DNA of 14,397 nucleotides from Treponema sp. (lineage in GTDB: Bacteria > Spirochaetota > Spirochaetia > Treponematales > Breznakiellaceae). The translations under genes were made by a program, and so were the position numbers. Positions 2,034 to 13,975 of this stretch are shown here, one piece after another; position 1 is the stretch's first letter, and each line of letters opens with the position of its first letter. The stretch is taken from contig JAISBS010000066.1 in assembly GCA_031266075.1 (NCBI GenBank), forward strand, positions 1-14,397, given 5' to 3'. A model generated the notes under the pieces. The model saw only the letters and a list, made by a program, of their open reading frames with translations, did no database searches and was not told the origin of the DNA.

Positions 2034-3104
2034 CTACGCATTTTGCCGGGCGATTTCCTGGAACTGGTCCTGGAGGGCGATCACCGCATCGGTAACGACC
2101 GGATCAAATTGGGTTCCCCTGCCTTCGGAGATGATCCGCACCGCCTCATCGTAGGAGAAGGCTTCCTTGTATACCCTGGCGCAGACCAGAGCGTCGTACA
2201 CATCGGAAGGGGAAGCGATCCGGGCGGAAAGGGGAATCGCCGTTCCCCCAAGGCCCCTGGGATAGCCTTTTCCGTCAAACCGCTCGTGGTGGCACCAGGC
2301 AATATCCCGGCAGTGCTTCAGATAAATGGAATCCTCGTCCTTTACCGCCTTCATCATTTCTTCGATGATATTTTTCCCCACCGTGGTGTGGGTTTTCATA
2401 ATTTCAAATTCTTCCGGGTCGAGCCTGCCGGGTTTAAGGAGGATCTTGTCGGGGATGCCGATTTTTCCCACATCGTGGAGGGCCATGGATTTTACGATAA
2501 TGTCCGGCTCCTGGGCCCGGAGTTCCTCCGCGTATACCGAACCGGATTTTATCAGATAATCGATCAGGGCCCGGCAGAAAAACTGGGTCCGCTTGACATG
2601 ACTTCCGGATTCAAGGTTCCGGTATTCGATAATGTTCGCCAGAGCCTGGAGGGTATTGTCCAGTGTAGAAGTTACCTCCGCGGTTTTTTCGGCCACCATC
2701 TCTTCCAGGCTGTCGCTGTAATTTTTTAATTCAATCTGGTTTTTCACCCGGAGTTGTACGATCTGCGGGAAAAAGGGCTTGCTGATAAAATCCACCGCTC
2801 CGGCGGAAAGGGCTTCGCTTTCGGAATCCGAAGTAGTGATGAAAATAACCGGTATCCGCTTGAGATTGGCATCGGCCTTCAAAATTTCCAGCAACTGGTA
2901 GCCGTTCATTTCGGGCATAATAATATCCAGCAGAATGATCTTGGGGGGAATCTCGGCCTGGGACAAAACTTCAAGGGCCTCTTTTCCGTTTTCCGCGGTA
3001 ATGATGTTGTAGTTTTCCTTGAGAATTTCCTCAAGAATCAGACGGTTTGTTTCAACGTCGTCAACTACCAGCACGGTTGGATTTTCTTTAGGCATTTTGC
3101 GCAA
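2034..3104 (-). CDS. Response regulator with N-terminal REC domain and C-terminal HD-GYP domain (c-di-GMP phosphodiesterase class, RpfG-like)
   Basis: 356 aa. The REC signature is VLVVDDVETNRL...ILLDIIMPEMNG...KxP. The HD-GYP signatures are HDVGKIGIPD and HHERFDGKGYPRGL. The alternative start MPKEN (ATG at 3093-3095) sits only 2 nt after the Hpt stop codon. Confidence 0.9.
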   Translation of the reverse strand: MRKMPKENPTVLVVDDVETNRLILEEILKENYNIITAENGKEALEVLSQAEIPPKIILLDIIMPEMNGYQLLEILKADANLKRIPVIFITTSDSESEALSAGAVDFISKPFFPQIVQLRVKNQIELKNYSDSLEEMVAEKTAEVTSTLDNTLQALANIIEYRNLESGSHVKRTQFFCRALIDYLIKSGSVYAEELRAQEPDIIVKSMALHDVGKIGIPDKILLKPGRLDPEEFEIMKTHTTVGKNIIEEMMKAVKDEDSIYLKHCRDIAWCHHERFDGKGYPRGLGGTAIPLSARIASPSDVYDALVCARVYKEAFSYDEAVRIISEGRGTQFDPVVTDAVIALQDQFQEIARQNA

Positions 3105-3432
3105 TCACCTTGTCAATTTCTTTTATGGTTTCGTCAAACGTATGTTTCACCGTTTCGATCTGTTCAGAATTTACCGTACGGGCCTTGATGTGGACCTCCA
3201 GTTCGAGGATCTGCCTGAAAAATTCGATCAGGGATAAATTCGCCGCCACGCCTTTTATCGTATGGGCCGAGGTCTGGGCTTTTTCATAATCGCCCGCATG
3301 AAGGAAGCCGGTCAGGTCATCCAGGCTGGCGCTGGTCCTGAATTTGGCAAGCAGCGTATAGTACAGCGCCGCGTTATTCATTACCCGCGCAACGCCTTCT
3401 TCAATATTAATAAACACCGGCTCGTCAGCCAT
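3088..3432 (-). CDS. Stand-alone histidine phosphotransfer (Hpt) domain protein
   Basis: 114 aa with the AHTIKGVAANLSL motif (phospho-His in the HxxKG context). It lies immediately upstream of, and overlapping or abutting, the REC-HD-GYP gene on the same strand. GGGGAG lies 7 nt upstream of the ATG. Confidence 0.7.
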   Translation of the reverse strand: MADEPVFINIEEGVARVMNNAALYYTLLAKFRTSASLDDLTGFLHAGDYEKAQTSAHTIKGVAANLSLIEFFRQILELEVHIKARTVNSEQIETVKHTFDETIKEIDKVIAQNA

Positions 3433-3572: not shown

Positions 3573-4766
3573 CTAAAAGCGCAGCCGGGCTTTGACGGTG
3601 AGGATAAAGCGGCTTCCCCCGGAAGCATCCGGCGGGATGGGGCCCAGTTCGCCCCGGCTGCCGTTTCCGGAAAAGAGGTCCCGGTCCAGGGGGGCCTGGG
3701 CGGAGAGGTTCAGGGTAAAGCCCTGAAAGAGTTCGTGTTCCGCGCCGAGGAGCGGTACAAAGGAAATGTCGCTGAACGAGGAAAGACAGGCCAGGGTGAA
3801 GCGGGTGTAATCGCTGTATAGCCAGGTCAGGCCGGTGTAGAGAAAATGTTCGCCGGAGAATCCGGCCAGATTGCCGCTCCGTACCGATGTGGAGGAGGCG
3901 GCGCCGTTGTAGAGATATTCCATCTGGACATACCACTTGCCGTCCGAAAAGGAATAGTCAAAGCCGCTGTTAAAGGAAAGGCCCTGGATATCCGCGCCGT
4001 CTTCGGGGTTATGGGTGTAAAGCATATCCACGGTAAAACCCAGTTCAATATCCGCCTTGAGGGAGAAGCCGCAGCGGTGTATGCCCTGGAGGGAACCGGG
4101 CTTTGGCAATTCAAAGGCGTAGAGGGCCTGGATACTGGCCTTGTCCCAGTGCTGATCTCCGGAGAATCCCGCCAGGCCTCCGTCTCCTTCCAGGGCCAGC
4201 GGATCCCTGGGCGCGGAGCCGAAAAGCTGAAGTTTCAGGGAATCCAGCGGATAGGCCGTAAGGGTTCCGCCCAATACCGCCCGGGGCCGGGCGTCGGGGA
4301 TCAGGGGATTTTTGGGGTTGAGAAAATCCGAGGGTCCGAAAACCTGCCCGTAACCAAAGGCGATCCGCATAAGGCCGCCGTCAAGATCCAGGTAATCGCC
4401 CGTGAGCCTGAAGTAAAGCCGTTCCAGTTCCAGCCCTGCGGCGTAGTTTTCCCCGGCGCTAAAAGCGGAGGGCGCGGGCCCTGGAGACGCGGCCCCCGCT
4501 CCCAACACGGCTGCCGCGGGACCGCCCGCCGCGGCGGTCAAATTCAGGGCCCCGTAAAAAGAAACGCCGTCCCGGGGCTTCGCCTGCATTCGCAGATTGG
4601 CGTATTCTTCAAGGCCGTAAAAAAAATCCGGCATACTGCCCGCCCCAGCCCCCAGGGTAACTGTCGTGTCCAGAATCCCCAAAAACTCCAGCCCCCCGGC
4701 CCAAAGCGCCCTGCCCGCCGTCAGGACCGCGCACAAACCGGCCAACAAAAATCTTTTTCCGCCCAT
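3573..4766 (-). CDS. Predicted outer-membrane beta-barrel protein (signal peptide; C-terminal ...ARLRF beta-signal)
   Basis: 397 aa. The N-terminus MGGKRFLLAGLCAVLTAGRALWA reads as a signal peptide. The body is rich in Gly/aromatic strand-like segments. The last residue is Phe with an alternating hydrophobic pattern (LTVKARLRF), typical of a BAM-recognised terminal strand. It starts 5 nt after the LolA-like stop. Confidence 0.55.
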   Translation of the reverse strand: MGGKRFLLAGLCAVLTAGRALWAGGLEFLGILDTTVTLGAGAGSMPDFFYGLEEYANLRMQAKPRDGVSFYGALNLTAAAGGPAAAVLGAGAASPGPAPSAFSAGENYAAGLELERLYFRLTGDYLDLDGGLMRIAFGYGQVFGPSDFLNPKNPLIPDARPRAVLGGTLTAYPLDSLKLQLFGSAPRDPLALEGDGGLAGFSGDQHWDKASIQALYAFELPKPGSLQGIHRCGFSLKADIELGFTVDMLYTHNPEDGADIQGLSFNSGFDYSFSDGKWYVQMEYLYNGAASSTSVRSGNLAGFSGEHFLYTGLTWLYSDYTRFTLACLSSFSDISFVPLLGAEHELFQGFTLNLSAQAPLDRDLFSGNGSRGELGPIPPDASGGSRFILTVKARLRF

Positions 4767-4771
4767 GATAA

Positions 4772-5527
4772 CTACCGTTCCAGATTCCGCTGGCTGAATA
4801 CCGAATCGGGGATGGGGCGGTCCAGAATGACATTCCGCATTACCAGCGTGGTCTTGCTGTTTTTCCGCAGAAGGTCCCGGATCTCAATCTCCACCGGGAA
4901 GCGGCGGCCTCCGAAAACTTCCACCCTGACAAGATTGTACTCTTTGAGTTTCGCCCCCGAAAGAGCGAAAAGTTCATAGTGGAGGCAGTCCCCGGTTTCC
5001 TTGTCGATCCAGAGTTTTTGTTTCGGGTAACTTTCGGTCCGCTTTTTCGCGGTGAGGTCCAGGATCCAGCAGTCCCGGCTTGCGCCGTTCATGATCCAGT
5101 CCGCGGAACCGCCGATGGCCGGATCATAGCGGGCCGAGAGCGTTTCGTTTTCGATTGTGTCTTCGTAGGACATATCGGAACCCATCATGCTTTCTTTCAG
5201 CATATGTCCTGAGATCAGCATCACTTCCTCGGTATCAGGCGAATACACGTAGAGCCGCCCGCCTTTTTTCAGGTACTTGGTTCCCCGGTCTCCGGGATTA
5301 ATAAATTCAACAAAACTGTCGGAATTTCCCCTGCCCCAGAAGTTCATGGTTTTTACAAACCGCTTGTTCTGATACTCGATGATCATATCCCCTTCGTATT
5401 CGATGGTGGTATAGATCTCGTTATCATCCACCCGCCGCAGCAGTTCCGCCGCCGAGGGCGTCTGCCCATACACGAATGAGCCCGCCATCACCGTAAACAA
5501 AACCGTCCATACCAGTGCTTTCATCAT
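4772..5527 (-). CDS. Secreted LolA-like protein (outer-membrane lipoprotein-sorting/carrier-like; PF17131-type call is tentative)
   Basis: 251 aa with signal peptide MMKALVWTVLFTVMAGSFVYGQ and a soluble, acidic mature part. It is positioned between an FtsX/MacB-type permease and an OMP gene, where LolA-like genes typically sit. The family assignment is from recollection and is not verifiable without an HMM search. Confidence 0.5.
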   Translation of the reverse strand: MMKALVWTVLFTVMAGSFVYGQTPSAAELLRRVDDNEIYTTIEYEGDMIIEYQNKRFVKTMNFWGRGNSDSFVEFINPGDRGTKYLKKGGRLYVYSPDTEEVMLISGHMLKESMMGSDMSYEDTIENETLSARYDPAIGGSADWIMNGASRDCWILDLTAKKRTESYPKQKLWIDKETGDCLHYELFALSGAKLKEYNLVRVEVFGGRRFPVEIEIRDLLRKNSKTTLVMRNVILDRPIPDSVFSQRNLER

Positions 5528-5562: not shown

Positions 5563-5598
5563 TTGTTCAAAAACTGAAGTTTTTAAACAACTCTATTA
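5563..5598. repeat. Palindromic intergenic repeat copy b: TTGTTCAAAAAC-TGAAG-TTTTTAAACAA-CTCTATTA
   Basis: Read directly. It lies in the 68-nt gap between permease 2 and the LolA-like gene, and its 3' end overlaps the permease-2 stop codon (TAA at 5596-5598). On the - strand RNA the arms pair perfectly, with one G:U. Confidence 0.7.
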
Positions 5599-6864
5599 TC
5601 TCCGCAGCGCTTCCACCGGCTCGACGAACGCGCTTTTGAGAGACGGAAACAAAGTGCAGATCGAAGTGATCAGCACGCCGAAAACAAAACCCTGAAGCAG
5701 GATCACCGGATCAAAGACAAGGGTTATGGTTCCCGCTATGGGGAATTCCTTCATGCCGCCGCCGGTGAAGATGTCCAGTTCCAGGGGGAAGAAAGAAAGA
5801 GCCAGGGTTACCATGCCCCCCGCCACGCAGCCTGCCAGAGAACCCAGGACGCTGAGGAACACCGCTTCAAAGAAAAAGACCCGGACGATCTCGGCCCGGC
5901 TCATTCCCAGGCTCCCCATCATGCCGATCTCCTTGATCCGCTCGTGGATGATCATCACCACGGTGTTGACAATAAGAAAGCTCGCCACAATAAGAAAGAC
6001 CAGGTAGACCACCGTAAAAATCATCATGCTCTGCCGCATCAGGATCACAAAATAATTATCCCGCCAGTCCCGGACTACGTTGTCTTTCCCCAGCAGGGTT
6101 TTGAATTGCGCGGTCAGGTTCCGGCTTTGGGAGGCGTCTTCGGCATAGATAAAAAGCTGCTGGGTTCCTTCTTCCAGCGCGAGGAGCCGCTGGAGCCGGG
6201 CAAAGTCAACGATGATTGCGTCTTCGTCATACTTGAGGTAATCGAACCGGAATATCCCGGTAATAACCGGGCTCCACATCTTGTCGGAGAACTGGGCCGA
6301 CACGGTTTTAAGGGGCAGGCGGTCGCCCACCCGGAGCCCGGCTTTTTCGGCCATCCTGACCCCGATGGCGCACTCGTTGGCCTCCGGTTCGGGGTAGCGG
6401 CCCGCCGCAAGACCTGAGTCCCGGCGGGTAAGGTTAAAGTTGTTCAGGGCCAGTTCCTCCCGGGCCTTGATGCCCCACAGAAACGCGTGTTTCACCGTGC
6501 TGTCCTGAAGGGTGGCGTAGGCGGTAATCCGGGGAAGAACAGCCTTTACCCCGCTGAAATTCAGCGCCCGGCGCTCCAGTTCCGCTACGGAAAGGCCCCC
6601 GGCAACGGGAAACCAGACGGGGTAATATTCTTTCTCCGCCTCGTAACGGGAGGAAACCACGCTCACATGGCCGGTGTCAAAAGTACAAACCACTTCTTCT
6701 ACGTTGTCCTTCATCCCCACCATCCAGGCCTGCATAAACACCGTAAAGAACACCGCGATAGCCGCCGCGCTGATGCAGAACAGCGTCCGCCGCCGGTTCC
6801 GCAAAATATTCCGGTACGCGATCTTGATGAGCGTCCCCGCCCCGCCAATTTTCATGCTGCTCAT
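5596..6864 (-). CDS. ABC transporter permease, FtsX/MacB/LolC-E type (4 TM plus periplasmic domain)
   Basis: 422 aa. N-terminal TM1 (RRTLFCISAAAIAVFFTVF), a periplasmic domain of about 200 aa, and a C-terminal 3-TM FtsX bundle (MMIFTVVYLVFLIVASFLIV ... ). A strong RBS AAGGAGG lies 5 nt upstream of the ATG at 6862-6864. Confidence 0.85.
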   Translation of the reverse strand: MSSMKIGGAGTLIKIAYRNILRNRRRTLFCISAAAIAVFFTVFMQAWMVGMKDNVEEVVCTFDTGHVSVVSSRYEAEKEYYPVWFPVAGGLSVAELERRALNFSGVKAVLPRITAYATLQDSTVKHAFLWGIKAREELALNNFNLTRRDSGLAAGRYPEPEANECAIGVRMAEKAGLRVGDRLPLKTVSAQFSDKMWSPVITGIFRFDYLKYDEDAIIVDFARLQRLLALEEGTQQLFIYAEDASQSRNLTAQFKTLLGKDNVVRDWRDNYFVILMRQSMMIFTVVYLVFLIVASFLIVNTVVMIIHERIKEIGMMGSLGMSRAEIVRVFFFEAVFLSVLGSLAGCVAGGMVTLALSFFPLELDIFTGGGMKEFPIAGTITLVFDPVILLQGFVFGVLITSICTLFPSLKSAFVEPVEALRR

Positions 6865-6874
6865 ATATACCTCC

Positions 6875-7042
6875 TTATTCGCCGTGGGGGTCTAATACCC
6901 TGCCCTTTAGGGCGGTCAGAATTGGTAACACCAACAAAAATGGTAGTAGACCCCCACAGTTAATAATTTCTTTACAGAACGAACCTCGTAAAATGATGCA
7001 ACGCCTACAAGATACCCCGTCCTTCAGGGCGGGGAGGTTCAT
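6875..7042 (-). CDS. Unannotated small ORF (57 aa), Cys-rich: MNLPALKDGVSCRRCIILRGSFCKEIINCGGLLPFLLVLPILTALKGRVLDPHGE
   Basis: Hand-translated from the - strand. Its ATG (7042-7040) overlaps the permease-1 TGA (7041-7039) in an ATGA arrangement. Its TAA (6877-6875) sits directly against the GGAGG RBS of permease 2. It has a CxxC-x7-C-x5-C pattern followed by a hydrophobic 16-aa stretch. It is below the 60-aa cutoff of the ORF track. Codon usage is AT-richer than the neighbouring genes. Confidence 0.3.
   Translation of the reverse strand: MNLPALKDGVSCRRCIILRGSFCKEIINCGGLLPFLLVLPILTALKGRVLDPHGE
7007..7034 (-). terminator. Terminator- or attenuator-like hairpin directly after the permease-1 stop: CCCCGCCC-UGAA-GGACGGGG followed by UAUCUUGU
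   Basis: On the - strand this is a 7/8-bp GC stem with a UGAA loop and then a moderately U-rich tail. It lies inside the operon and inside the candidate small ORF, so it is a partial terminator at most. Confidence 0.3.
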
Positions 7043-8805
7043 TCAAACCGCAGGCTTTCGGTGATCGGCATCTTGAGGGCGCGGCGGGTGGGGAAGAAGG
7101 CCATACAGGCCGCAAGCGTTGTGGCGGCGATCCCGGAGCCGATGATTACCGGAATGTTCCACGCGGAACGGAAGACGCCGGTAACCCGGTAGCCGATGTC
7201 TCCTCCGGCGGCATTGGTCATGGCACTAAAATCCAGGCCGTATTTAACCATGGGGATATTGATAAGGCAGCCTGCCGCAATGCCGATGAGGGAACCAAAG
7301 AAGCCCACCATGCCCGCTTCCATCATGTAGGTGCCGATCAACTGGCCGTCGGTCATGCCCATGGCCCGCATCATGCCGGTTTCCCGGGTTCGTTCCAGAA
7401 TGGCCAGCAGCATAGTGTTGGCGATCCCCATGAAGGACAGGATGAAGAGGATGATAACCATGATCTGATTGGAAACATTGTCCCCCTGAGAGGCCGCAAG
7501 GTAATCCCGCACATAGGCTTCCCAGGAAAAAATATCCAGTTCCTCCGGCAAGGCTGCCGGCAGGGAATATGCGGTTTTCGCCATGGTTGTTTCGGTGATG
7601 CCCGTTCCGGCCACAGCCGCTTTAATGGCCGCGGGACTCTCGGTCTTTCCGGGAACCTTTGCGTCATCGGCGTTTTTTATCCGTATGAGAAGTTCCGTCA
7701 CCCGGCCTTCCAGCATAAGTCCCGCTTCGTCCTGTAAAACATCCAGGGGAATCCAGGCGGTGTTGTTGTTGTTCCGGGGATTGGGGGAATTGACCACCCC
7801 GGCCACCACCGCGGAAACAAGCTGGTTCACGTGCCGTATGGCCCCGGCGTAATCTACCCGGACCATGGCGGTCAGCACCGCGGCCTGGAGCGCTTCGTCT
7901 TCGGAATAGAGATACCACGCCTGGGTTAGTTCATCAAACTCATAGGCGCGGTGGAAAAGCGCCCGCTCTTCCGCGTTTAAGGCCGGGGCCAGATCCACGT
8001 CAAATTTTTCCTTCCGTACCGATTCGGGGGCGGCCTTGATGTCGATGACCGTGGAGATTTGCACGTTCATCCGCCCCGTTTCCGCCAGCAGGTTCCAGTA
8101 GCGGTCCAGGTCCTGCGGGGGGATATTTTTTTTCAGGGTCTGGCGTTCCTCGCCGGGCCGGGAGGGAGCCGCCTCCGCCGGAGCGAAGAGGCCGCCGCTT
8201 TTTGCCGGCGCTTTTTCGTAGAGGCCCCGCACAAAGTCCCGTTCCTCCGGCGGCAGGCCGGGCAGAATGTCCCCGTCCAATTCATCCGCCGTGGGCCGCT
8301 GGGGAATCCCCACCTTGAGCTTGTCCGCCGTTACCGCCCCCAGCGCTATTTCGAAGGCGCCGCTTTGAATAAAGCGGCCCGACTCGATGTACCGGGGGTA
8401 ACGGAGGATCCGCGCCTCCGCCGCCGGGTCGCAGCCGATAAACTGCATGGGCGCGGAGGCCGCTTCCGTGTAGAGGGTCCCGGTAAACACAAAGCGCGGG
8501 GCGCTGTTATAGCCCGCTTCGTCCAGAGCCGCGGCGCACTGTTCCCAGCCGCCGAAATTTTCGTACATCGGAAGTTCGTCCTTTTTGGCGAAGTAGGTTT
8601 TTTTCTGGAGTTTCGCCGCGCCGATCTCGAAGTTGGCGATGTTCCGCAGGGAATCGATGTTTATCCCCGCAAGCCAGCCGTCCATAAAAACATAGAGCGC
8701 CACGCTGATACTTACCGCGGCGATGGTAAGAACCGTCTTTACCTTATGCCGCGCCAGGTTCCGCAGCGCCAGCCGTTTGAGTTCGATTACGCCTGCCATA
8801 GTCAT
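7039..8805 (-). CDS. ABC transporter permease, FtsX/MacB type with a greatly enlarged (~420 aa) periplasmic domain
   Basis: 588 aa. TM1 is at residues ~20-45 (VLTIAAVSISVALYVFM). The next TM segments begin only at ~residue 465 (IMVIILFILSFMGIANTMLLAIL). The C-terminal 3-TM FtsX bundle is followed by ...TESLRFE. Its start overlaps the ATPase stop as ATGA (8802-8805). Confidence 0.85.
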   Translation of the reverse strand: MTMAGVIELKRLALRNLARHKVKTVLTIAAVSISVALYVFMDGWLAGINIDSLRNIANFEIGAAKLQKKTYFAKKDELPMYENFGGWEQCAAALDEAGYNSAPRFVFTGTLYTEAASAPMQFIGCDPAAEARILRYPRYIESGRFIQSGAFEIALGAVTADKLKVGIPQRPTADELDGDILPGLPPEERDFVRGLYEKAPAKSGGLFAPAEAAPSRPGEERQTLKKNIPPQDLDRYWNLLAETGRMNVQISTVIDIKAAPESVRKEKFDVDLAPALNAEERALFHRAYEFDELTQAWYLYSEDEALQAAVLTAMVRVDYAGAIRHVNQLVSAVVAGVVNSPNPRNNNNTAWIPLDVLQDEAGLMLEGRVTELLIRIKNADDAKVPGKTESPAAIKAAVAGTGITETTMAKTAYSLPAALPEELDIFSWEAYVRDYLAASQGDNVSNQIMVIILFILSFMGIANTMLLAILERTRETGMMRAMGMTDGQLIGTYMMEAGMVGFFGSLIGIAAGCLINIPMVKYGLDFSAMTNAAGGDIGYRVTGVFRSAWNIPVIIGSGIAATTLAACMAFFPTRRALKMPITESLRFE

Positions 8806-9488
8806 TGTTTCACCTCGTCCGATTCGATTTGGCCGTCGCGGATGCGGATGATCCGGCGGGCAACGTCCATCACCATAAGGTCATGGGTGGAGAAGATGAA
8901 CGTGGTTCCTTCGCTTTGGTTGAGCCGCAGCATGAGTTCCAGAATTTCCCGGCCAATTTTGGAGTCCAGGTTCGCCGTGGGTTCATCGGCCAGAATCAGG
9001 GTGGGCCGTTTTATCAGGGCCCGCGCAATGGCCACCCGCTGCTGCTGGCCGCCGGACATTTCTTTGGGCCGCCGTTTTTCCATACCCTCAAGTCCCACCT
9101 GCGACAGAACCTGCCGGACCCGGTCGCGGGTTTCCCGCCTGTCCGTCCCCAGCAGAGTCAGCGGGAAGCCGATGTTTTCTTCTACTGACAAAACGGGAAT
9201 CAGGTTATATGCCTGAAAGATAAAGCCGATACTGTACCGCCGCAAAAGGGCCAGCTTTTTTTTGGAAAGATTGGCGATGTCGGTGCCGCCGACGCTTATG
9301 GAACCCCCGGTGAGGGTATCGAGGCAGCCCGCCAGATGAAGGAACGTTGACTTGCCGCTTCCCGAGGGCCCGGCAATGGCGGCAAAATCCCCGCCCCGGA
9401 ATTCCAGATTCACCCCCCGCAGAGCGTGAACCGTCTGCCCGTTTATCCCATAGTCCTTTACCAGATTTTCCGCCTTTACCACCGTCAT
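8802..9488 (-). CDS. ABC transporter ATP-binding protein, LolD/MacB-NBD type
   Basis: 228 aa. Walker A GPSGSGKST, signature LSGGQQQRVAIARAL, Walker B LILADEPTANLD, H-loop STHD. AGGAGG lies upstream of the ATG at 9486-9488. Confidence 0.95.
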   Translation of the reverse strand: MTVVKAENLVKDYGINGQTVHALRGVNLEFRGGDFAAIAGPSGSGKSTFLHLAGCLDTLTGGSISVGGTDIANLSKKKLALLRRYSIGFIFQAYNLIPVLSVEENIGFPLTLLGTDRRETRDRVRQVLSQVGLEGMEKRRPKEMSGGQQQRVAIARALIKRPTLILADEPTANLDSKIGREILELMLRLNQSEGTTFIFSTHDLMVMDVARRIIRIRDGQIESDEVKQ

Positions 9489-9508: not shown

Positions 9509-9566
9509 TTGTATTATTGAACTATTTATCTAGTACAATAGTAAATGAGCTAGTACAATATGTCAA
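9509..9566 (-). promoter_or_regulatory. Promoter TTGACA-N17-TACTAT of the ABC operon with embedded operator half-sites TAGTACAA (x2 direct) and TTGTATTA
   Basis: - strand: -35 TTGACA is plus 9561-9566 and -10 TACTAT is plus 9538-9543. The 16-mer ATCTAGTACAATAGTA (plus 9528-9543) is identical to the one at the GntR promoter (11265-11280). A second TAGTACAA at 9551-9558 lies in the spacer. Confidence 0.5.
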
Positions 9567-9598
9567 GTGGAAAAGGGGAAAATTTTGAATTCCGGGGT

Positions 9599-9644
9599 AA
9601 AAAAAGGGAAGCGCTGAAACCCGGTTGGGTTTTCAACGCTTCCC
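9599..9644 (-). terminator. Rho-independent terminator of the GntR-SPFH transcript
   Basis: On the - strand there is an 8-bp perfect stem GGGAAGCG...CGCUUCCC (9606-9613 / 9637-9644). It has an inner GAAACCC/GGGUUUC stem and is followed by UUUUUUU (plus A-run 9599-9605). It lies 30-80 nt downstream of the SPFH stop. Confidence 0.6.
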
Positions 9645-9675
9645 TTAATGAAAAACGGGGTTTCCGGCGGTTCCC

Positions 9676-10839
9676 CTAAGTCCCGCCTTTACCTTTTTTC
9701 TGCCGCAGTTCCGCCAGGGCTTGCAGGCCGAAGATGTCCTTCGCCTTGAGTTCCTCGGTGATGGAATTGGGTACCAGCATCATGGAGTTCCCCGCCTTGA
9801 GGCCCTCGTTCAAAATCGAAAGAATTTTGAGCTTCATGGCCGGTTCGTTTTTCGCGTAGATGGCTACCGCGGTTTCCAGCTTTTTGGCGATTTCGATCTC
9901 CGCGTCCGCCAGGAGGATCCGGCCTTTCTTTTCCCGTTCCGCCTGGGCGATCCGGGAGAGGGAATCCTGAAGGTCTTCGGGGATCTGAATGTCGGTGATT
10001 TCAATATGCTGGATGGTGATGCCCCATTCGGTGGTTTTCCGGTCCACTTCTTCCTGAATCTGCTTCTGGATGATTTCGCCATGCTCCAGAAAGGTGGACA
10101 GGTCGTGGCTGGACACGGAGTTCCGCAGGGCGGTTTTCGCGGAGAGGATCACCGCATCCTGGTAATTTTCCACTTCCAGTACCGCCTTCTCCGGATCCCA
10201 GACGAGCCAGAAGCAGAGGGCGTCCACGGTAACTGTTACTGAATCGCCGGTGAGGGTTTCCTGGGCCACAAAGTCCGTAACCCGGATGCGGAGATCCACG
10301 GTCTGCGCGACCCGGTCTATCAGGGGGATGAGGACAAAGATGCCGGGGCCCTTGACCCGGTGGAAGCGGCCAAAGCGGAGGACGATGGCCCGCTCCCATT
10401 CATCGGCTTTCTGCACCAGGGGGGCGATGAGGGCTGTGAGCGCGGCGAAGAGCAGGGCCGGGCCAAAATCGAAATCCCTTTGGGGGAACCAGATGAACCA
10501 GGCGGCCCCCGCCGTGCAGATCAGGGCGATGCTGATCTTAACCGCCGCGGCCCAGCGGGGGAACAGCGTCATGCAGAGGAGAGTCAGGGCGGGAAGGCCC
10601 AGGAGCAGCCCCAGTTCAGTTGCAGAAGGGAAGCTCCCGCCAAGGCTGAGGCCCGCCAGCACAAAGAGGACGGCGGCGGCGAGGATGCCCAGCCCCGCGG
10701 CGCTCAGGGTAAAGTCCCGTTTTTTTTCCGGCGGGGAAGGGCGGTTTTTGATGTGGGGCTTGTCCGAAAGGAAGCCTGTTTCGCGGCGCTTCAACTCGGG
10801 GCCGCCGGTTTGGTCCGGTTCGCCTTTTTTCCTAAACAT
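9676..10839 (-). CDS. SPFH/band-7 (stomatin/prohibitin-like) membrane protein with an N-terminal ~4-TM extension
   Basis: 387 aa. Residues ~45-145 contain four hydrophobic segments. The PHB core follows: EWERAIVLRFGRFHRVKGPGIFVLIPLIDRV...VDLRIRVTDFVAQETLTGDSVTVTVDALCFWLV, then a coiled-coil-like C-terminal tail. RBS AAGGAGAA is present. The ATG (10837-10839) overlaps the last codons and stop of the GntR gene by 8 nt. Confidence 0.85.
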   Translation of the reverse strand: MFRKKGEPDQTGGPELKRRETGFLSDKPHIKNRPSPPEKKRDFTLSAAGLGILAAAVLFVLAGLSLGGSFPSATELGLLLGLPALTLLCMTLFPRWAAAVKISIALICTAGAAWFIWFPQRDFDFGPALLFAALTALIAPLVQKADEWERAIVLRFGRFHRVKGPGIFVLIPLIDRVAQTVDLRIRVTDFVAQETLTGDSVTVTVDALCFWLVWDPEKAVLEVENYQDAVILSAKTALRNSVSSHDLSTFLEHGEIIQKQIQEEVDRKTTEWGITIQHIEITDIQIPEDLQDSLSRIAQAEREKKGRILLADAEIEIAKKLETAVAIYAKNEPAMKLKILSILNEGLKAGNSMMLVPNSITEELKAKDIFGLQALAELRQKKGKGGT

Positions 10840-11266
10840 CTTGCGATTCTCCTTTTTCGTAACGGTACCCGTGGATCAGTTCCGGAAGCTCCGCCTGATC
10901 CACTCCTAAATCCTTCATATCCTGTATAAAGCGGCCCAGCACTTCCCGAATTTTCCGGTTCAGCCCTTCCTCGGCGGAAGCCGCTTCTCCCAAAAGGGGC
11001 GCTTTGTCCGACACATAGGTGCCGCTCCCCACCTGGGTGGTCAGGATACCCCGGATTTCCAGTTCCCCATAGGCTTTGGCGATGGTATTGGAGTTGATCT
11101 TCAACTCCACCGCCAGGGAACGGATAGTGGGCAGCCGGTCGCCGGGCCGCATCCGCTCCGAAAGGATGGCATATTCAATCTGCTGAATGATCTGTCGGTA
11201 AATCGGCGCCCCGTTGGACGGGTTCAGGGTAAAACTGATGGCCGGTTCCGCATTTGTACTATTCAT
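10832..11266 (-). CDS. GntR-family transcriptional regulator, short C-terminal domain (YtrA-like subfamily)
   Basis: 144 aa. The winged HTH reads PIYRQIIQQIEYAILSERMRPGDRLPTIRSLAVELKINSNTIAKAYGELEIRGILTTQVGSGTYV. Only ~60 residues follow, with no FadR/HutC/MocR-size effector domain, which is the hallmark of YtrA-type regulators that control adjacent ABC exporter operons. Confidence 0.85.
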   Translation of the reverse strand: MNSTNAEPAISFTLNPSNGAPIYRQIIQQIEYAILSERMRPGDRLPTIRSLAVELKINSNTIAKAYGELEIRGILTTQVGSGTYVSDKAPLLGEAASAEEGLNRKIREVLGRFIQDMKDLGVDQAELPELIHGYRYEKGESQDV

Positions 11267-11303
11267 CTAGTACAATAGTAGATACGCTCGTACCATGTGT
11301 CAA
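11254..11303 (-). promoter_or_regulatory. GntR promoter TTGACA-N17-TACTAT (near-leaderless) plus inverted repeat TTGTACTA-N6-TAGTACAA centred on the GntR start codon
   Basis: - strand: -35 TTGACA is plus 11298-11303 and -10 TACTAT is plus 11275-11280, only 8 nt from the ATG (11264-11266). The palindrome arms are at 11254-11261 and 11268-11275. The 16-mer 11265-11280 is identical to 9528-9543. Confidence 0.5.
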
Positions 11304-11374
11304 GACGGTTTTGACCGGATCTCCAGGAGGACCGGCTGTAACCACCCGCCCTTCCGTTTTTTTCAATAATGGAC

Positions 11375-11406: not shown

Positions 11407-11448
11407 TCTCGCAAAATGCTCCGCATTTTTGCTGTTTTTAAGAGGAAG

Positions 11449-11484
11449 TTGTTCAAAAACTGAAGTTTTTAAACAACTCTAATA
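11449..11484. repeat. Palindromic intergenic repeat copy c: TTGTTCAAAAAC-TGAAG-TTTTTAAACAA-CTCTAATA
   Basis: Read directly. Confidence 0.7.
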
Positions 11485-11557: not shown

Positions 11558-11593
11558 TGTTCCAAAAACTGAAGTTTTTAAACAACTCTAATC
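11558..11593. repeat. Palindromic intergenic repeat copy d (left arm degenerate: CTGTTCCAAAAAC): TGAAG-TTTTTAAACAA-CTCTAATC
   Basis: Read directly. It ends 19 nt before the GTG start of the TolC-like gene and is adjacent to the GGAGGG RBS at 11602-11607. Confidence 0.65.
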
Positions 11594-11612: not shown

Positions 11613-12965
11613 GTGGGGCGTGTTTTTGCCGGATGTTTTTTTCTTGCGGTAAGCCTGTCCCTGGCCTGGCCGGAGAATGACCCGCCGGGGGTTCTGTCCG
11701 GCGGCCCGCTGGTTCTTACACTGGACGAAGCGGTGCGGCGGGCGCTGGAGGAGAATCTGGATCTGAAAAAGCGGCTCATCGACCTTTCCGCCGCCGGATA
11801 CGCCGCGAAAAACCTTTGGGCGGAACTGTTCCCCTCCATCACCGCCGGAGCGGGGGCGAGTTACGGAACCGGGCTTTTTTCGGGGAACGGGTTTGAACTG
11901 GACAAAAGCGGCCTTGGCTATGATCTTTCGGCAGGGTTGAGCCTGAGCCTGAACGCGGGACTTCCCCAGACCATGAAGATCATCAAACTGGCGTACCAGT
12001 CCCGGCTGCTGGAATATGAGGATGCCCGGCGGCAGCTTGAAACGGTGATTGCCAAAAATTTTTACACCCTGCTGACGGACCGGGAGAACCTTGCCCATCT
12101 GGAAAAAACCCTTGAACTGGCGGAACGTCAGCTTGAACGGGACCGGATCGCCTTTAACAACGGCCTCAAGGGGGAGCTGGCCCTGCTTCAGAGCCGGCTG
12201 GGCGCGGAAACGGCGAAGTACCGGCTCAGCAATGCCCGGACCGCCTATACCGCCGCGCTGGGGGATTTTTTGGCCCTTTTGGGGATTCCCCAGGACAGGC
12301 CGGCGGTTCTGGATGGGGAGATCGACATCTACCCGGTGGACGCGGAGCCGGAGGCCTTGATCCGGGAATATCTTCCCAAACGGCCTGACATTCTGGGCTG
12401 GGGGCAGGCCATCGAGAGCCTTGAGTATACGGCGCGGCAAAACGCGCTGGAGGCCCGGGCCCCTTCGCTGACTTTGTCCACCCGGTGGAGCAGCCAGTTT
12501 GAACCCTTCGCCGACCGGGTGAACGGTTCCGTATCGGTTTCCATCCCCATTGATTCCTGGGTTCCCGGAACCCGAAGGGACCGGGCCCTGAAAACCGCGG
12601 CGGCGAATGTCGAAAAAGCCCGGCTGGATCTGAAAAACGCCGAAAACGAAGCGGCCTCCCGGATCCGGTCTTTGGCCGCGGGCCTGAAAAATTCCTGGGC
12701 CGGCATCGAGATTGCCCGGCTCAGTGTGGAGATTGCGGAACGAACCTATGAACTGCACGAAGAGGGTTTCCGGCTCGGTACGGTGGAGTCGCTGGCGCTG
12801 GAGGACACCCGGAACAGTCTGGCGGAAAAACGGCAGCAGCTTTTGCAGAGCGAATTGGCCTATCAAACTATGACGCTGGATTTGGCCGCCGCCCTCAATA
12901 TAGACTGGAAAATATTGGGGGATATAACAAACGCCCCGGAAGCCTCCGCGGGGAGTGAACGGTGA
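11613..12965 (+). CDS. Outer-membrane efflux protein, TolC/OEP family
   Basis: 450 aa with a GTG start, signal peptide MGRVFAGCFFLAVSLSLAWP, and an N-terminal LTLDEAVRRALEENLDLK motif. It has a two-repeat coiled-coil/beta architecture typical of OEP. The opposite-strand ORF (11592-12983) is Pro/Gly/Arg-rich and looks spurious. Confidence 0.85.
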   Translation: MGRVFAGCFFLAVSLSLAWPENDPPGVLSGGPLVLTLDEAVRRALEENLDLKKRLIDLSAAGYAAKNLWAELFPSITAGAGASYGTGLFSGNGFELDKSGLGYDLSAGLSLSLNAGLPQTMKIIKLAYQSRLLEYEDARRQLETVIAKNFYTLLTDRENLAHLEKTLELAERQLERDRIAFNNGLKGELALLQSRLGAETAKYRLSNARTAYTAALGDFLALLGIPQDRPAVLDGEIDIYPVDAEPEALIREYLPKRPDILGWGQAIESLEYTARQNALEARAPSLTLSTRWSSQFEPFADRVNGSVSVSIPIDSWVPGTRRDRALKTAAANVEKARLDLKNAENEAASRIRSLAAGLKNSWAGIEIARLSVEIAERTYELHEEGFRLGTVESLALEDTRNSLAEKRQQLLQSELAYQTMTLDLAAALNIDWKILGDITNAPEASAGSER

Positions 12966-13975
12966 AACATACAAAGACCTCAAAGAGAGTAACCATCGTT
13001 ATCAGCGGTTTGACGGGTATTTTTGTTTTGCTCATTGGCTGGACCGTAATTCAACGGCGCCCGCCCGCGACGCCGTCCGCCGCAGGGCCCGGCGCGGCGG
13101 CTCCAGCTTCGGCGGGCGGCGGCCCCGGCGCGACGGCTCCAACTCCGGCGGGCGGTGAGGCTGGGCGTGGCGGCGGGGCGGCCCGGAACGCCACCGCAGT
13201 GCGGGTAACGCCGGTAACGCTGGATACCATCGAGAATTCGGTAGTCATTAACGGAGACGTGCTGGCCCGGAACCAGGTTTCCATTTACCCCACCGTGGCG
13301 GGAAAACTGGCGGAAGCCCGGCGGGGAATCGGCGACCGGGTGAACCGGGGGGATGTGGTGGCCATGGTAGATCCTTCCCGGCCCGGAGAGTTTTATTCCC
13401 TGAGCCCCGTGGTTTCCACTATTTCCGGCACCGTACTGCAGGCCCCCTTCAGCGCCGGCGATACCCTGTCCACCGGATCGGCGGTCTATGTGGTGGGGGA
13501 CCTTTCGGAACTGGTCGTGGAGACCTTTGTGCCCGAGCGGTTCACGACCGCGGTGCGGCAGGGGCTGGCCGCCCAGGTGAGTTTTGAAGCCCTGCCGGGG
13601 GAAATTTTCCCCGCCGCGGTGGATGAGGTAAGCCCCGTGCTGGATCCCGCCAGCCGCACCATGAAGATCCGGCTCCGCTTTACCGGGTGGGCCGACCCCC
13701 GAATCCGGGCCGGAATGTTCGCCACGGTGAGCCTGGTAACCAACACCCGCTCCAGCGTACCGGTGATCCCCCGGGGCGCGGTGATCAACACCTACGGTTC
13801 CTGGATTGTCTTTACCGTTGACGATGAACAAACCGCCCGGCGGCGTTCCGTTACCCTGGGCCTTGAAAACGAAACTTTCATCGAAGTAAGCGGCGGCCTT
13901 GAAGAGGGGGAACTGGTGGTTACCGCGGGGCAGAATTTTTTAAGCGACCGGGATCCGGTCCGCATTATCGAATAG
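12962..13975 (+). CDS. Efflux RND periplasmic adaptor subunit (membrane fusion protein, HlyD/AcrA family)
   Basis: 337 aa with a GTG start overlapping the TolC stop (GTGA). There is an N-terminal TM anchor, a Pro/Ala/Gly-rich linker, then lipoyl/beta-barrel/MP-domain-like sequence (VTPVTLDTIENSVVINGDVLARNQVSIYPTVAGKLAE...). Confidence 0.85.
   Translation: MKHTKTSKRVTIVISGLTGIFVLLIGWTVIQRRPPATPSAAGPGAAAPASAGGGPGATAPTPAGGEAGRGGGAARNATAVRVTPVTLDTIENSVVINGDVLARNQVSIYPTVAGKLAEARRGIGDRVNRGDVVAMVDPSRPGEFYSLSPVVSTISGTVLQAPFSAGDTLSTGSAVYVVGDLSELVVETFVPERFTTAVRQGLAAQVSFEALPGEIFPAAVDEVSPVLDPASRTMKIRLRFTGWADPRIRAGMFATVSLVTNTRSSVPVIPRGAVINTYGSWIVFTVDDEQTARRRSVTLGLENETFIEVSGGLEEGELVVTAGQNFLSDRDPVRIIE
13088..13156 (+). 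repeat. Imperfect 36-bp tandem duplication encoding GPGAAAPASAGG / GPGATAPTPAGG in the adaptor-protein linker
   Basis: Two 33-nt units at 13088-13120 and 13124-13156 with 29/33 identity and an in-frame period of 36 nt. Confidence 0.7.

Follow-up and report, generated by a model that had tools for sequence, protein, structure and literature searches.

The system examined here is encoded on a contig of 14,397 nucleotides (nt) from a metagenome-assembled genome (MAG) of a termite-gut Treponema (JAISBS010000066.1, assembly GCA_031266075.1), whose whole length is referred to as the window, and its central element is a minus-strand gene for an outer-membrane β-barrel protein of an unnamed family, which follows genes for an ATP-binding cassette (ABC) transporter and a LolA-like periplasmic carrier. 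With moderate confidence, the barrel can be regarded as the point at which an inducible ABC/LolA-like exporter of hydrophobic cargo ends in the outer membrane. In this reading we infer the direction of transport, the hand-off and the cargo; the part supported computationally comprises the fold, the signal peptide and β-signal, the way in which the operon is built, its operator and the synteny across phyla. The original prediction, made from the window alone, had proposed either a LolB substitute or an export duct; the second option appears to be the better one, and the first is not supported.

The open reading frame (ORF) of the barrel starts with an ATG (complement of 'cat' at 4764-4766) located exactly 5 nt (4767-4771) after the stop codon of the carrier ORF (TAG, complement of 'cta' at 4772-4774), the spacing originally reported and now confirmed from the sequence. 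The ORF is considered genuine and not a chance frame because it has 687 homologues at E<=1e-3; the plus-strand ORF overlapping it (3846..4979) was disregarded. The database copy of the protein is named 'hypothetical protein LBK27_04990 [Treponema sp.]', and the NCBI gene model begins 7 codons later (390 amino acids, aa), a start that is disfavored because the basic n-region formed by K4/R5 would be lost. The N-terminus, MGGKRFLLAGLCAVLTAGRALWA followed by GG, reads, from its residues, as a Sec-type signal peptide in which a hydrophobic core and an A-x-A-like site accompany this basic n-region, and an N-terminal hydrophobic run is present in 172 of the 187 full-length family members. The residue Cys12 is not conserved in the consensus of the family alignment, with a lipobox-like pattern in just 9/187 members, and the barrel is therefore not considered a lipoprotein. 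At the opposite end, the sequence FILTVKARLRF carries hydrophobic residues at all six alternating positions and a terminal Phe, the pattern of substrates of the β-barrel assembly machinery (BAM); the last residue is F in 170 and Y in 5 of the full-length members (175/187 together), at least five of the six alternating positions within the last 11 residues are hydrophobic in 182/187, and L395, R396 and F397 are each conserved in the family alignment at 90% or more. The two targeting signals claimed from the single sequence, the signal peptide and the BAM-type terminus, are thus family traits.

The structure prediction by which the claim of a barrel could be judged returned a barrel. The AlphaFold2 model, built from an alignment of 48 sequences (predicted local distance difference test score, pLDDT, 81.4; predicted template modelling score, pTM, 0.77), is a closed antiparallel barrel with an even number of strands, 18, connected by turns of 2-4 residues on one side and by longer loops on the other. 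In a fold comparison with known structures, whose figures are given without a unit, the predicted model is closest to Campylobacter jejuni MOMP (21.8) and Escherichia coli ChiP (21.4), followed by OccAB3 and OccAB4 (20.6 and 20.4), AlgE (20.3), OpdQ, OccD2 and OccD3 (about 20), maltoporin (19.0) and Wzi (18.0), with 16-strand general porins (about 15) and Omp85 barrels (12-13) further down; Foldseek was in agreement, and OmpC-MlaA structures were among its matches. The likeness concerns the predicted fold, as sequence identity to the 18-stranded monomers (C. jejuni MOMP, OprD/Occ, ChiP, AlgE, Wzi, maltoporin) is 6-15%, with no match to their Pfam families. The Pfam-A and NCBIfam scans of the protein matched no model (Pfam, 0 families either at E<=0.01 or at E<=5), including the named porin families Porin_O_P, OprD, Porin_4, Wzi and DUF1302 at the Pfam gathering threshold, and at sequence level no PDB chain was matched by the single sequence or by the profiles A1 (family) and A4 (broad); scattered sub-threshold matches to Porin_O_P, DUF1302 and Wzi appear among the distant members. 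The family is rare: among 1.84 billion representative proteins, its profile recovered 295 clusters (50% identity) with E<=1e-3, of which 94 reach E<=1e-30. A word-indexed search with the distant-member profile A2 returned only 4 proteins.

Conservation in the family is highest in the loop assigned by strand order as the third extracellular one, L3 (residues 134-163, GGLMRIAFGYGQVFGPSDFLNPKNPLIPDARPR), a loop that in porins is folded into the lumen; its motif G-x-Q/R-x-x-F/W-G-x-G...P-x-D-F-x-N-P-x-N-P persists in relatives of ~20% identity, and many of the invariant strand residues in the family alignment are charged (E53, R59, E113, E115, R134, K237, D270, E283). The conservation of L3 and of these strand residues, which presumably face the lumen, points to a specific lumen and not to a general diffusion pore.

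The genomic context gives the barrel its partners. Related loci were scanned with one genome per species, 80 of 111 loci being kept and their neighbors identified by tblastn with the window proteins; they derive from termite-gut Treponema, Breznakiella, Brucepastera and a few MAGs labelled Chitinispirillia. Of the 68 loci in which 900 nt or more precede the barrel, 66 have a LolA-like gene directly upstream of it, and the full module, ABC ATPase, two permeases, LolA-like carrier and barrel, is present in all 29 loci with at least 6.6 kilobases (kb) upstream, whereas GntR and SPFH genes are each found in 21 of the 25 loci with enough upstream sequence. The condition named in the original prediction as refuting it, a family occurring mostly away from ABC/LolA-like genes, was therefore not borne out, and the barrel is a dedicated partner of these genes. 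The co-translation stoichiometry that had been deduced from the 5-nt gap is not sustained, as this gap is specific to the window locus, and the (extrapolated) carrier-barrel gaps in the relatives range from -13 to +203 nt, with a median of about 35. The cassette is also carried by the cultured termite-gut spirochetes Breznakiella homolactica RmG30, Brucepastera parasyntrophica RmG11 and Treponema sp. TIM-1.

A second, distant set comprises barrels 17-23% identical on unrelated contigs, some of them Firmicutes-like, and provides ten informative loci, in all of which the barrel gene stands beside MacB-type ABC transporter genes and in seven of which a PF17131 carrier gene lies immediately upstream. 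The order ABC-FtsX-FtsX-PF17131-barrel is found alone in L085, where carrier and barrel overlap by 4 nt, behind a TetR gene in L081 (MAG labelled Firmicutes), with a MarR/MmpR5 gene in L083, with an MmpR5-type HTH gene in L088, and with a membrane protein-HTH_34 pair in L089 and L090; L086 is a fragment in which the C-terminal part of a PF17131 gene overlaps the barrel start, L091 reads barrel-membrane protein-HTH_34-ABC-FtsX-FtsX, and in L082 and L084 the barrel is followed by an ABC ATPase and the contig end. The L083 host is probably a sporulating diderm Firmicute because CotJA/CotJB genes adjoin the cassette. Stop/start overlaps of 4 nt between carrier and barrel recur at several distant loci, and the flanks and the regulator vary from one locus to the next, with TetR, MarR/MmpR5 or HTH_34 regulators instead of the YtrA-like GntR of the window. 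The barrel-ABC link is kept while flanks and regulators change, and such synteny is the signature of a functional module and not of inherited gene order.

Regarding the inner-membrane and periplasmic components (Table 1), the best NCBIfam matches of the permeases are lolCE, LolE and LolC and that of the ATPase is LolD, in every case far below the equivalog cut-offs, and the sequence comparisons assign the three proteins to the MacB/type VII superfamily and not to LolCDE itself. In Pfam, the permeases score 70.4 and 61.8 bits with FtsX, and with MacB_PCD the 422-aa protein reaches 36 bits and the 588-aa protein 26.6, slightly short of the cut-off of 27; the ATPase gene and the gene of the 588-aa permease overlap by 4 nt. 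The carrier has a Sec signal peptide devoid of Cys and is for this reason predicted to be soluble; its sequence matches in the PDB are 3buu (E 3e-8), 4z48 (E 1e-7), 3bk5 and 9tp6, and 'outer membrane lipoprotein-sorting protein' is its label in databases. Members of the LolA superfamily have an open half-barrel in which hydrophobic groups, acyl or other, are shielded.

On this basis, the heterodimeric type VII ABC transporter would extract a hydrophobic or amphipathic cargo from the inner membrane's outer leaflet or from the periplasm by ATP-driven mechanotransmission and would load it into the cavity of the PF17131 carrier, which would cross the periplasm and hand the cargo to the 18-stranded barrel; the latter would pass it through or into the outer membrane by means of the conserved L3 and the polar strand residues, assumed to face the lumen. 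Transporters of the MacB superfamily (MacB, LolCDE, DevCA, PvdT) have no transmembrane substrate path, and the ATP-driven motion of their periplasmic domains expels or extracts substrates on the periplasmic side (review PMC5985334). The characterized systems are all exporters, extractors or mechanotransducers, with no importer known in the superfamily (PMC5985334), and it is because of this behavior that the export direction is proposed for the cassette.

The regulators adjoining the cassette are of types that usually control efflux pumps. In the window, expression would be repressor-controlled, with the GntR protein acting through predicted operators on two promoters, that of its own gene and that of the ABC gene. 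A promoter/operator block of 51 nt is duplicated (9517-9567 and 11254-11304, 84% identical) and each copy carries TTGACA-17-TACTAT and a palindrome TGTACTA-N6-TAGT(A/T)CA, to which the YtrA-like GntR regulator probably binds and for which 0 matches are expected by chance; the exact palindrome, TGTACTA-N6-TAGTACA, occurs in 26 related loci, most often at the GntR start and otherwise just upstream of the ABC gene (L020, L034, L041). We read this sequence arrangement as two transcription units, gntR-SPFH and ABC-to-barrel, separated by a terminator-like hairpin and both placed under an autoregulated YtrA-like repressor. The GntR-type PmtR of Staphylococcus aureus, which controls the Pmt ABC exporter, appears to be a precedent (PMC5080381). 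Since the cassette is under local regulators of the efflux type, we favor inducible efflux of a toxic lipophile, or export of a specialized amphiphile, over housekeeping envelope biogenesis; that the toxic lipophile in the termite gut is a wood extractive is a speculation.

Several results weigh against this explanation. The AlphaFold2 model of the carrier (22 sequences of 75-90% identity, too shallow an alignment) reached a pLDDT of 53 and a pTM of 0.50, and does not confirm its fold; the barrel model is all-β, with periplasmic turns of 2-4 residues and no obvious docking domain for the carrier; and the 66 syntenic loci belong mostly to closely related termite-gut treponemes, hence they are not independent observations. 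Moreover, two orphan paralogues occur without a cassette, L074 in a TonB-receptor/FadL-like neighborhood and L076 behind MntP and DUF1232 genes, and at L091 no PF17131 gene is present in the locus, though barrel and ABC genes are.

Some known systems combine similar elements. The closest functional analogue is the combination of DUF1302 (PF06980), DUF1329 (PF07044), BNR and resistance-nodulation-division (RND) proteins, the first three with HAE3 RND genes cofitting in several Proteobacteria (10.1101/072470). In this system (AmeABCD; Sama_1588-1591; PP_0765/0766), as in the cassette, a barrel gene adjoins the genes of an inner-membrane pump and of a periplasmic member of the LolA superfamily, and it has been linked to hydrophobic compounds, namely monoterpene tolerance, conferred by AmeABCD in Castellaniella defragrans (PMC6394551), and fatty esters. 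The engine clearly differs, RND plus a BNR/Ycf48-like protein in that system and a MacB-type ABC transporter with no BNR/Ycf48-like protein in the cassette, and so do the sizes of the barrel (about 540-600 aa in DUF1302, 397 aa here) and of the periplasmic protein (about 450 aa in DUF1329, ~250 aa in the PF17131 carrier). The carrier side is homologous to DUF1329 because the L083 and L088 carriers exceed its cut-off as a secondary match (28.9 and 28.0 versus 23.1 bits), whereas the barrel side bears only a faint sequence similarity to DUF1302, restricted to matches in the conserved L3 region of 2/22 distant barrels (best, 14.6 bits versus a threshold of 23.2). In Thalassolituus oleivorans, TOL_3187, an MMPL protein fused to a LolA-like domain, is accompanied by the co-induced downstream porin-like TOL_3188 (PMC6304351). 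In Treponema pallidum, TP0789 is the namesake of PF17131, TPANIC_0789 being annotated as outer membrane lipoprotein-sorting protein (PMC10600179), and TP0790, whose adjacency is taken from the consecutive locus numbers only, has been modelled as an AcrB-like RND transporter (PMC8407342). These two systems use RND/MMPL engines, unlike the MacB-type ABC of the cassette, and the PG1175-81 genes of Porphyromonas gingivalis, PF17131 with an RND/MMPL engine, are strongly induced by iron limitation (PMC10434189). The cluster BBJ23-BBJ29 of Borrelia burgdorferi has otherwise the same ingredients as the cassette and was computationally proposed to transfer a non-polar ligand to the outer membrane (PMC13078400), its barrel BBJ25 being of the Omp85 type, with 16 strands and BamA/TamA-like, which differs from the 18 strands predicted here. 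The pairing of carrier and barrel, initially described as unusual, was thus already represented in DUF1302/DUF1329, BBJ23-29 and TOL_3187/3188; the general idea is known but poorly characterized, and the combination of a MacB-type ABC transporter, PF17131 and an unnamed 18-strand barrel was not found in literature searches.

Two classical machines resemble the cassette in part. MacAB-TolC shares with it a MacB-superfamily engine, a local repressor and export across both membranes, and differs in the membrane-fusion adaptor and the OEP/TolC duct, replaced in the cassette by a soluble shuttle and an all-β barrel without a periplasmic tunnel; the identity of the barrel as TolC or another outer-membrane factor was rejected, with no OEP match and no long helical tunnel in the all-β model. 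LolABCDE likewise combines a type VII ABC heterodimer, an ATPase and a soluble LolA-superfamily carrier running from the inner to the outer membrane, but uses canonical LolA and a LolA-fold lipoprotein acceptor instead of PF17131 and an integral 18-strand barrel, and is not, like the cassette, accessory and repressor-controlled.

The similarity to LolABCDE underlies the alternative that survives best, even if we regard it as unlikely, namely a machine for envelope biogenesis on a Lol-like or lipid route, in which the barrel would be the acceptor or insertase for endogenous lipidated cargo, either as LolB substitute or as translocon for surface lipoproteins or glycolipids. Mla shows that a lipid route with an ABC transporter and a periplasmic carrier can have a porin as its station in the outer membrane, the carrier lies within the LolA superfamily, the Lol models are the best NCBIfam matches of permeases and ATPase, and the analogous BBJ23-29 cluster has been read in this manner (PMC13078400). 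Nevertheless, those matches (115 and 40 versus 362 bits for the permeases, 214 versus 308 for the ATPase) fall far below the cut-offs, the family is rare and patchy, with two cassettes in one MAG (L045, L071), local control by TetR, MarR, GntR or HTH_34 regulators is atypical for housekeeping biogenesis, and in Borrelia an essential LolA is retained separately (PMC11326224). The features that define LolB are all missing in the barrel; this identity was rejected given the lack of a lipobox Cys, the closed barrel in place of an open half-barrel of ~200 aa and the absence of a LolB/LolA Pfam match. A substitute for LolB in general lipoprotein sorting is not supported and unlikely, given the accessory nature of the cassette, its 295 clusters, its occurrence twice in one MAG, its efflux-type repressors and the missed Lol equivalog cut-offs. 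A narrower version, a self-contained route by which LolB-less diderms would deliver a glycolipid or some of their lipoproteins, with PF17131 as a dedicated LolA and the barrel as acceptor/insertase or surface translocon, appears quite improbable, even though the sequences of permeases and ATPase are nearest to LolC/E/D.

The opposite direction, uptake of a hydrophobic nutrient admitted by the barrel, ferried inward by the LolA-like protein and imported by the ABC transporter, would be in agreement with the uptake function of several structural neighbors (Occ/OprD, ChiP, maltoporin), with the lower fitness of Pseudomonas putida DUF1302/DUF1329 mutants on fatty esters and Tween 20 (10.1101/2020.07.04.188060) and with the induction of TOL_3187/3188 on a C28 alkane (PMC6304351), but it is very improbable, since type VII permeases, with four transmembrane helices per subunit, have no transmembrane substrate path and no importer is known among them (PMC5985334), and neither a substrate-binding lipoprotein in the cassette nor conserved catabolic genes beside it were found in the loci examined. 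Mechanotransduction without transport, in which an FtsEX-like ABC transporter would move a LolA/RseB-like partner sensing or gating the barrel in an envelope-stress circuit, recalls the way in which FtsEX-type members of the superfamily work, the weak MucB_RseB similarity of the carrier (E 1e-4 to 0.1) and the presence of the SPFH protein and, in 11/61 loci, of the downstream Hpt/HD-GYP pair. We consider it highly improbable, given that the permeases give poor scores with the FtsX cell-division models (E 1e-5 to 1e-8, well short of the cut-offs) and that the distant cassettes keep the five-gene core but not the SPFH or Hpt/response-regulator genes. Finally, a generic diffusion porin located by chance at the operon end, in spite of the porin-like fold, the structural matches to OmpC, OmpK36 and Rhodobacter porin and the orphan copies L074 and L076, can practically be dismissed: the association with ABC/LolA-like genes (66/68 and 29/29 loci, plus the 10 distant ones) is maintained at 17-23% identity under different regulators and flanks, with stop/start overlaps with the carrier gene, the family is rare, and conservation peaks in L3 and in charged strand residues (E113, E115, R134, K237) placed by inference toward the lumen, not in the scaffold only.

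If the export reading is correct, the cassette would represent a third architecture by which a MacB engine moves hydrophobic molecules across the diderm envelope, with a LolA-like shuttle and a porin-like barrel in place of both the continuous MacA/TolC duct and the LolA/LolB lipoprotein relay. It would also provide a candidate role for an unannotated outer-membrane family, and the annotations of PF17131 proteins as 'lipoprotein-sorting protein' are probably misleading. As the same logic is found with RND engines (DUF1302/DUF1329, TP0789/TP0790), the mechanism would inform on Pseudomonas, hydrocarbon degraders and pathogenic spirochetes, three cultured termite-gut spirochetes carry the cassette, and the conserved predicted operator offers a handle on the inducer.

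Table 1. Genes and predicted regulatory sites of the window, ordered by position.
Feature	Position	Strand	Remarks
Hpt protein and HD-GYP (cyclic di-GMP phosphodiesterase-type) response regulator	2034-3432	minus	downstream of barrel, no recognizable terminator between
Target gene, outer-membrane β-barrel of unnamed family	3573..4766	minus	397 aa; signal peptide; 18 predicted strands; ...ARLRF
LolA-like periplasmic carrier, PF17131 'TP_0789-like'	4772..5527	minus	251 aa; Pfam E 1.5e-43, 149 bits vs cut-off 30, profile 1-184/184
Type VII ABC permease (MacB_PCD + FtsX)	5596..6864	minus	422 aa, Pfam; lolCE TIGR02212 115.1 bits vs cut-off 362.45
Second type VII ABC permease	7039..8805	minus	588 aa; Pfam FtsX 448-581, partial MacB_PCD 24-166; lolCE 40.2 vs 362.45 bits
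ABC ATPase (LolD/MacB/DevA-like)	8802..9488	minus	Pfam ABC_tran 110 bits; LolD TIGR02211 213.9 bits vs cut-off 307.75
Predicted palindromic operator TGTACTA-N6-TAGTTCA	9537-9518	minus	after promoter-like site, upstream of ABC gene
Promoter-like site TTGACA-17-TACTAT	9566-9538	minus	upstream of ABC gene
Terminator-like hairpin and T-run	9604..9646	minus	inverted repeat, 19-nt arms, 89% complementary; after SPFH gene
SPFH/Band 7 membrane protein, polytopic N-terminus	9676..10839	minus	Pfam Band_7 E 7.5e-35; overlaps GntR gene by 8 nt
Short GntR-family regulator	10832..11266	minus	144 aa; Pfam GntR E 4.6e-17; YtrA-like by size alone
Perfect palindrome TGTACTA-N6-TAGTACA	11274-11255	minus	overlaps GntR start codon
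Promoter-like site before GntR gene	11303-11275	minus	TTGACA-17-TACTAT
TolC/HlyD pair	11613-13975	divergent to cassette	Pfam; OEP match in gene 11613-12965

Two neighboring gene pairs were considered as additional components and rejected. The Hpt/HD-GYP pair follows the barrel in just 11/61 loci and in none of the distant cassettes, and the TolC/HlyD pair is divergent, the only other locus with a match being L040, where it lies downstream on the opposite strand. The divergent region that separates the GntR gene from the TolC/HlyD genes contains a perfect 30-nt direct repeat, CAAAAACTGAAGTTTTTAAACAACTCTAAT, which includes an inverted repeat (11454-11483 and 11563-11592, 109 nt apart), and a degenerate third copy at 11437-11466; this repeat may serve the operon on the TolC side as an operator.

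With respect to the composition of the cassette, the 588-aa permease possesses ~170-280 extra periplasmic residues that match nothing in Pfam, the two permeases in distant cassettes measuring 411-424 aa, and this region, from the sequence comparison evidently a lineage-specific insertion, could be a carrier-docking or cargo-selecting domain. Among the listed relatives, identity is 75-91% for the carrier and 54-82% for the barrel, a contrast that fits with fast-evolving surface-exposed barrel loops and a tightly constrained carrier. In L089, L090 and L091, a polytopic membrane protein of ~220 aa beside the HTH_34 regulator occupies the place of SPFH and GntR in treponemes; these proteins are homologous (E 3e-19 for L090-L091 and 6e-18 for L089-L090, only 0.02 for L089-L091), and a membrane protein paired with a repressor may be a recurring sensing arrangement.

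Regarding the distribution of the cassette, the MAG Kf353_bin129 carries two diverged copies (L045 and L071) on separate contigs, and contig BNUT01000001.1 contains two feature-identical copies of the whole cassette (L003 and L004) in opposite orientation, ~30 kb apart, explained either by the inverted duplication of a large segment or by an artefact of assembly. In MAGs labelled Chitinispirillia/Chitinivibrionia (Fibrobacterota), the barrels (L052, L062, L074) share 46-48% identity with the treponeme protein; those of L052 and L062 are accompanied by treponeme-like carrier genes and that of L052 also by treponeme-like permease genes, which suggests either mis-binning or a horizontal transfer that took place in the termite gut.

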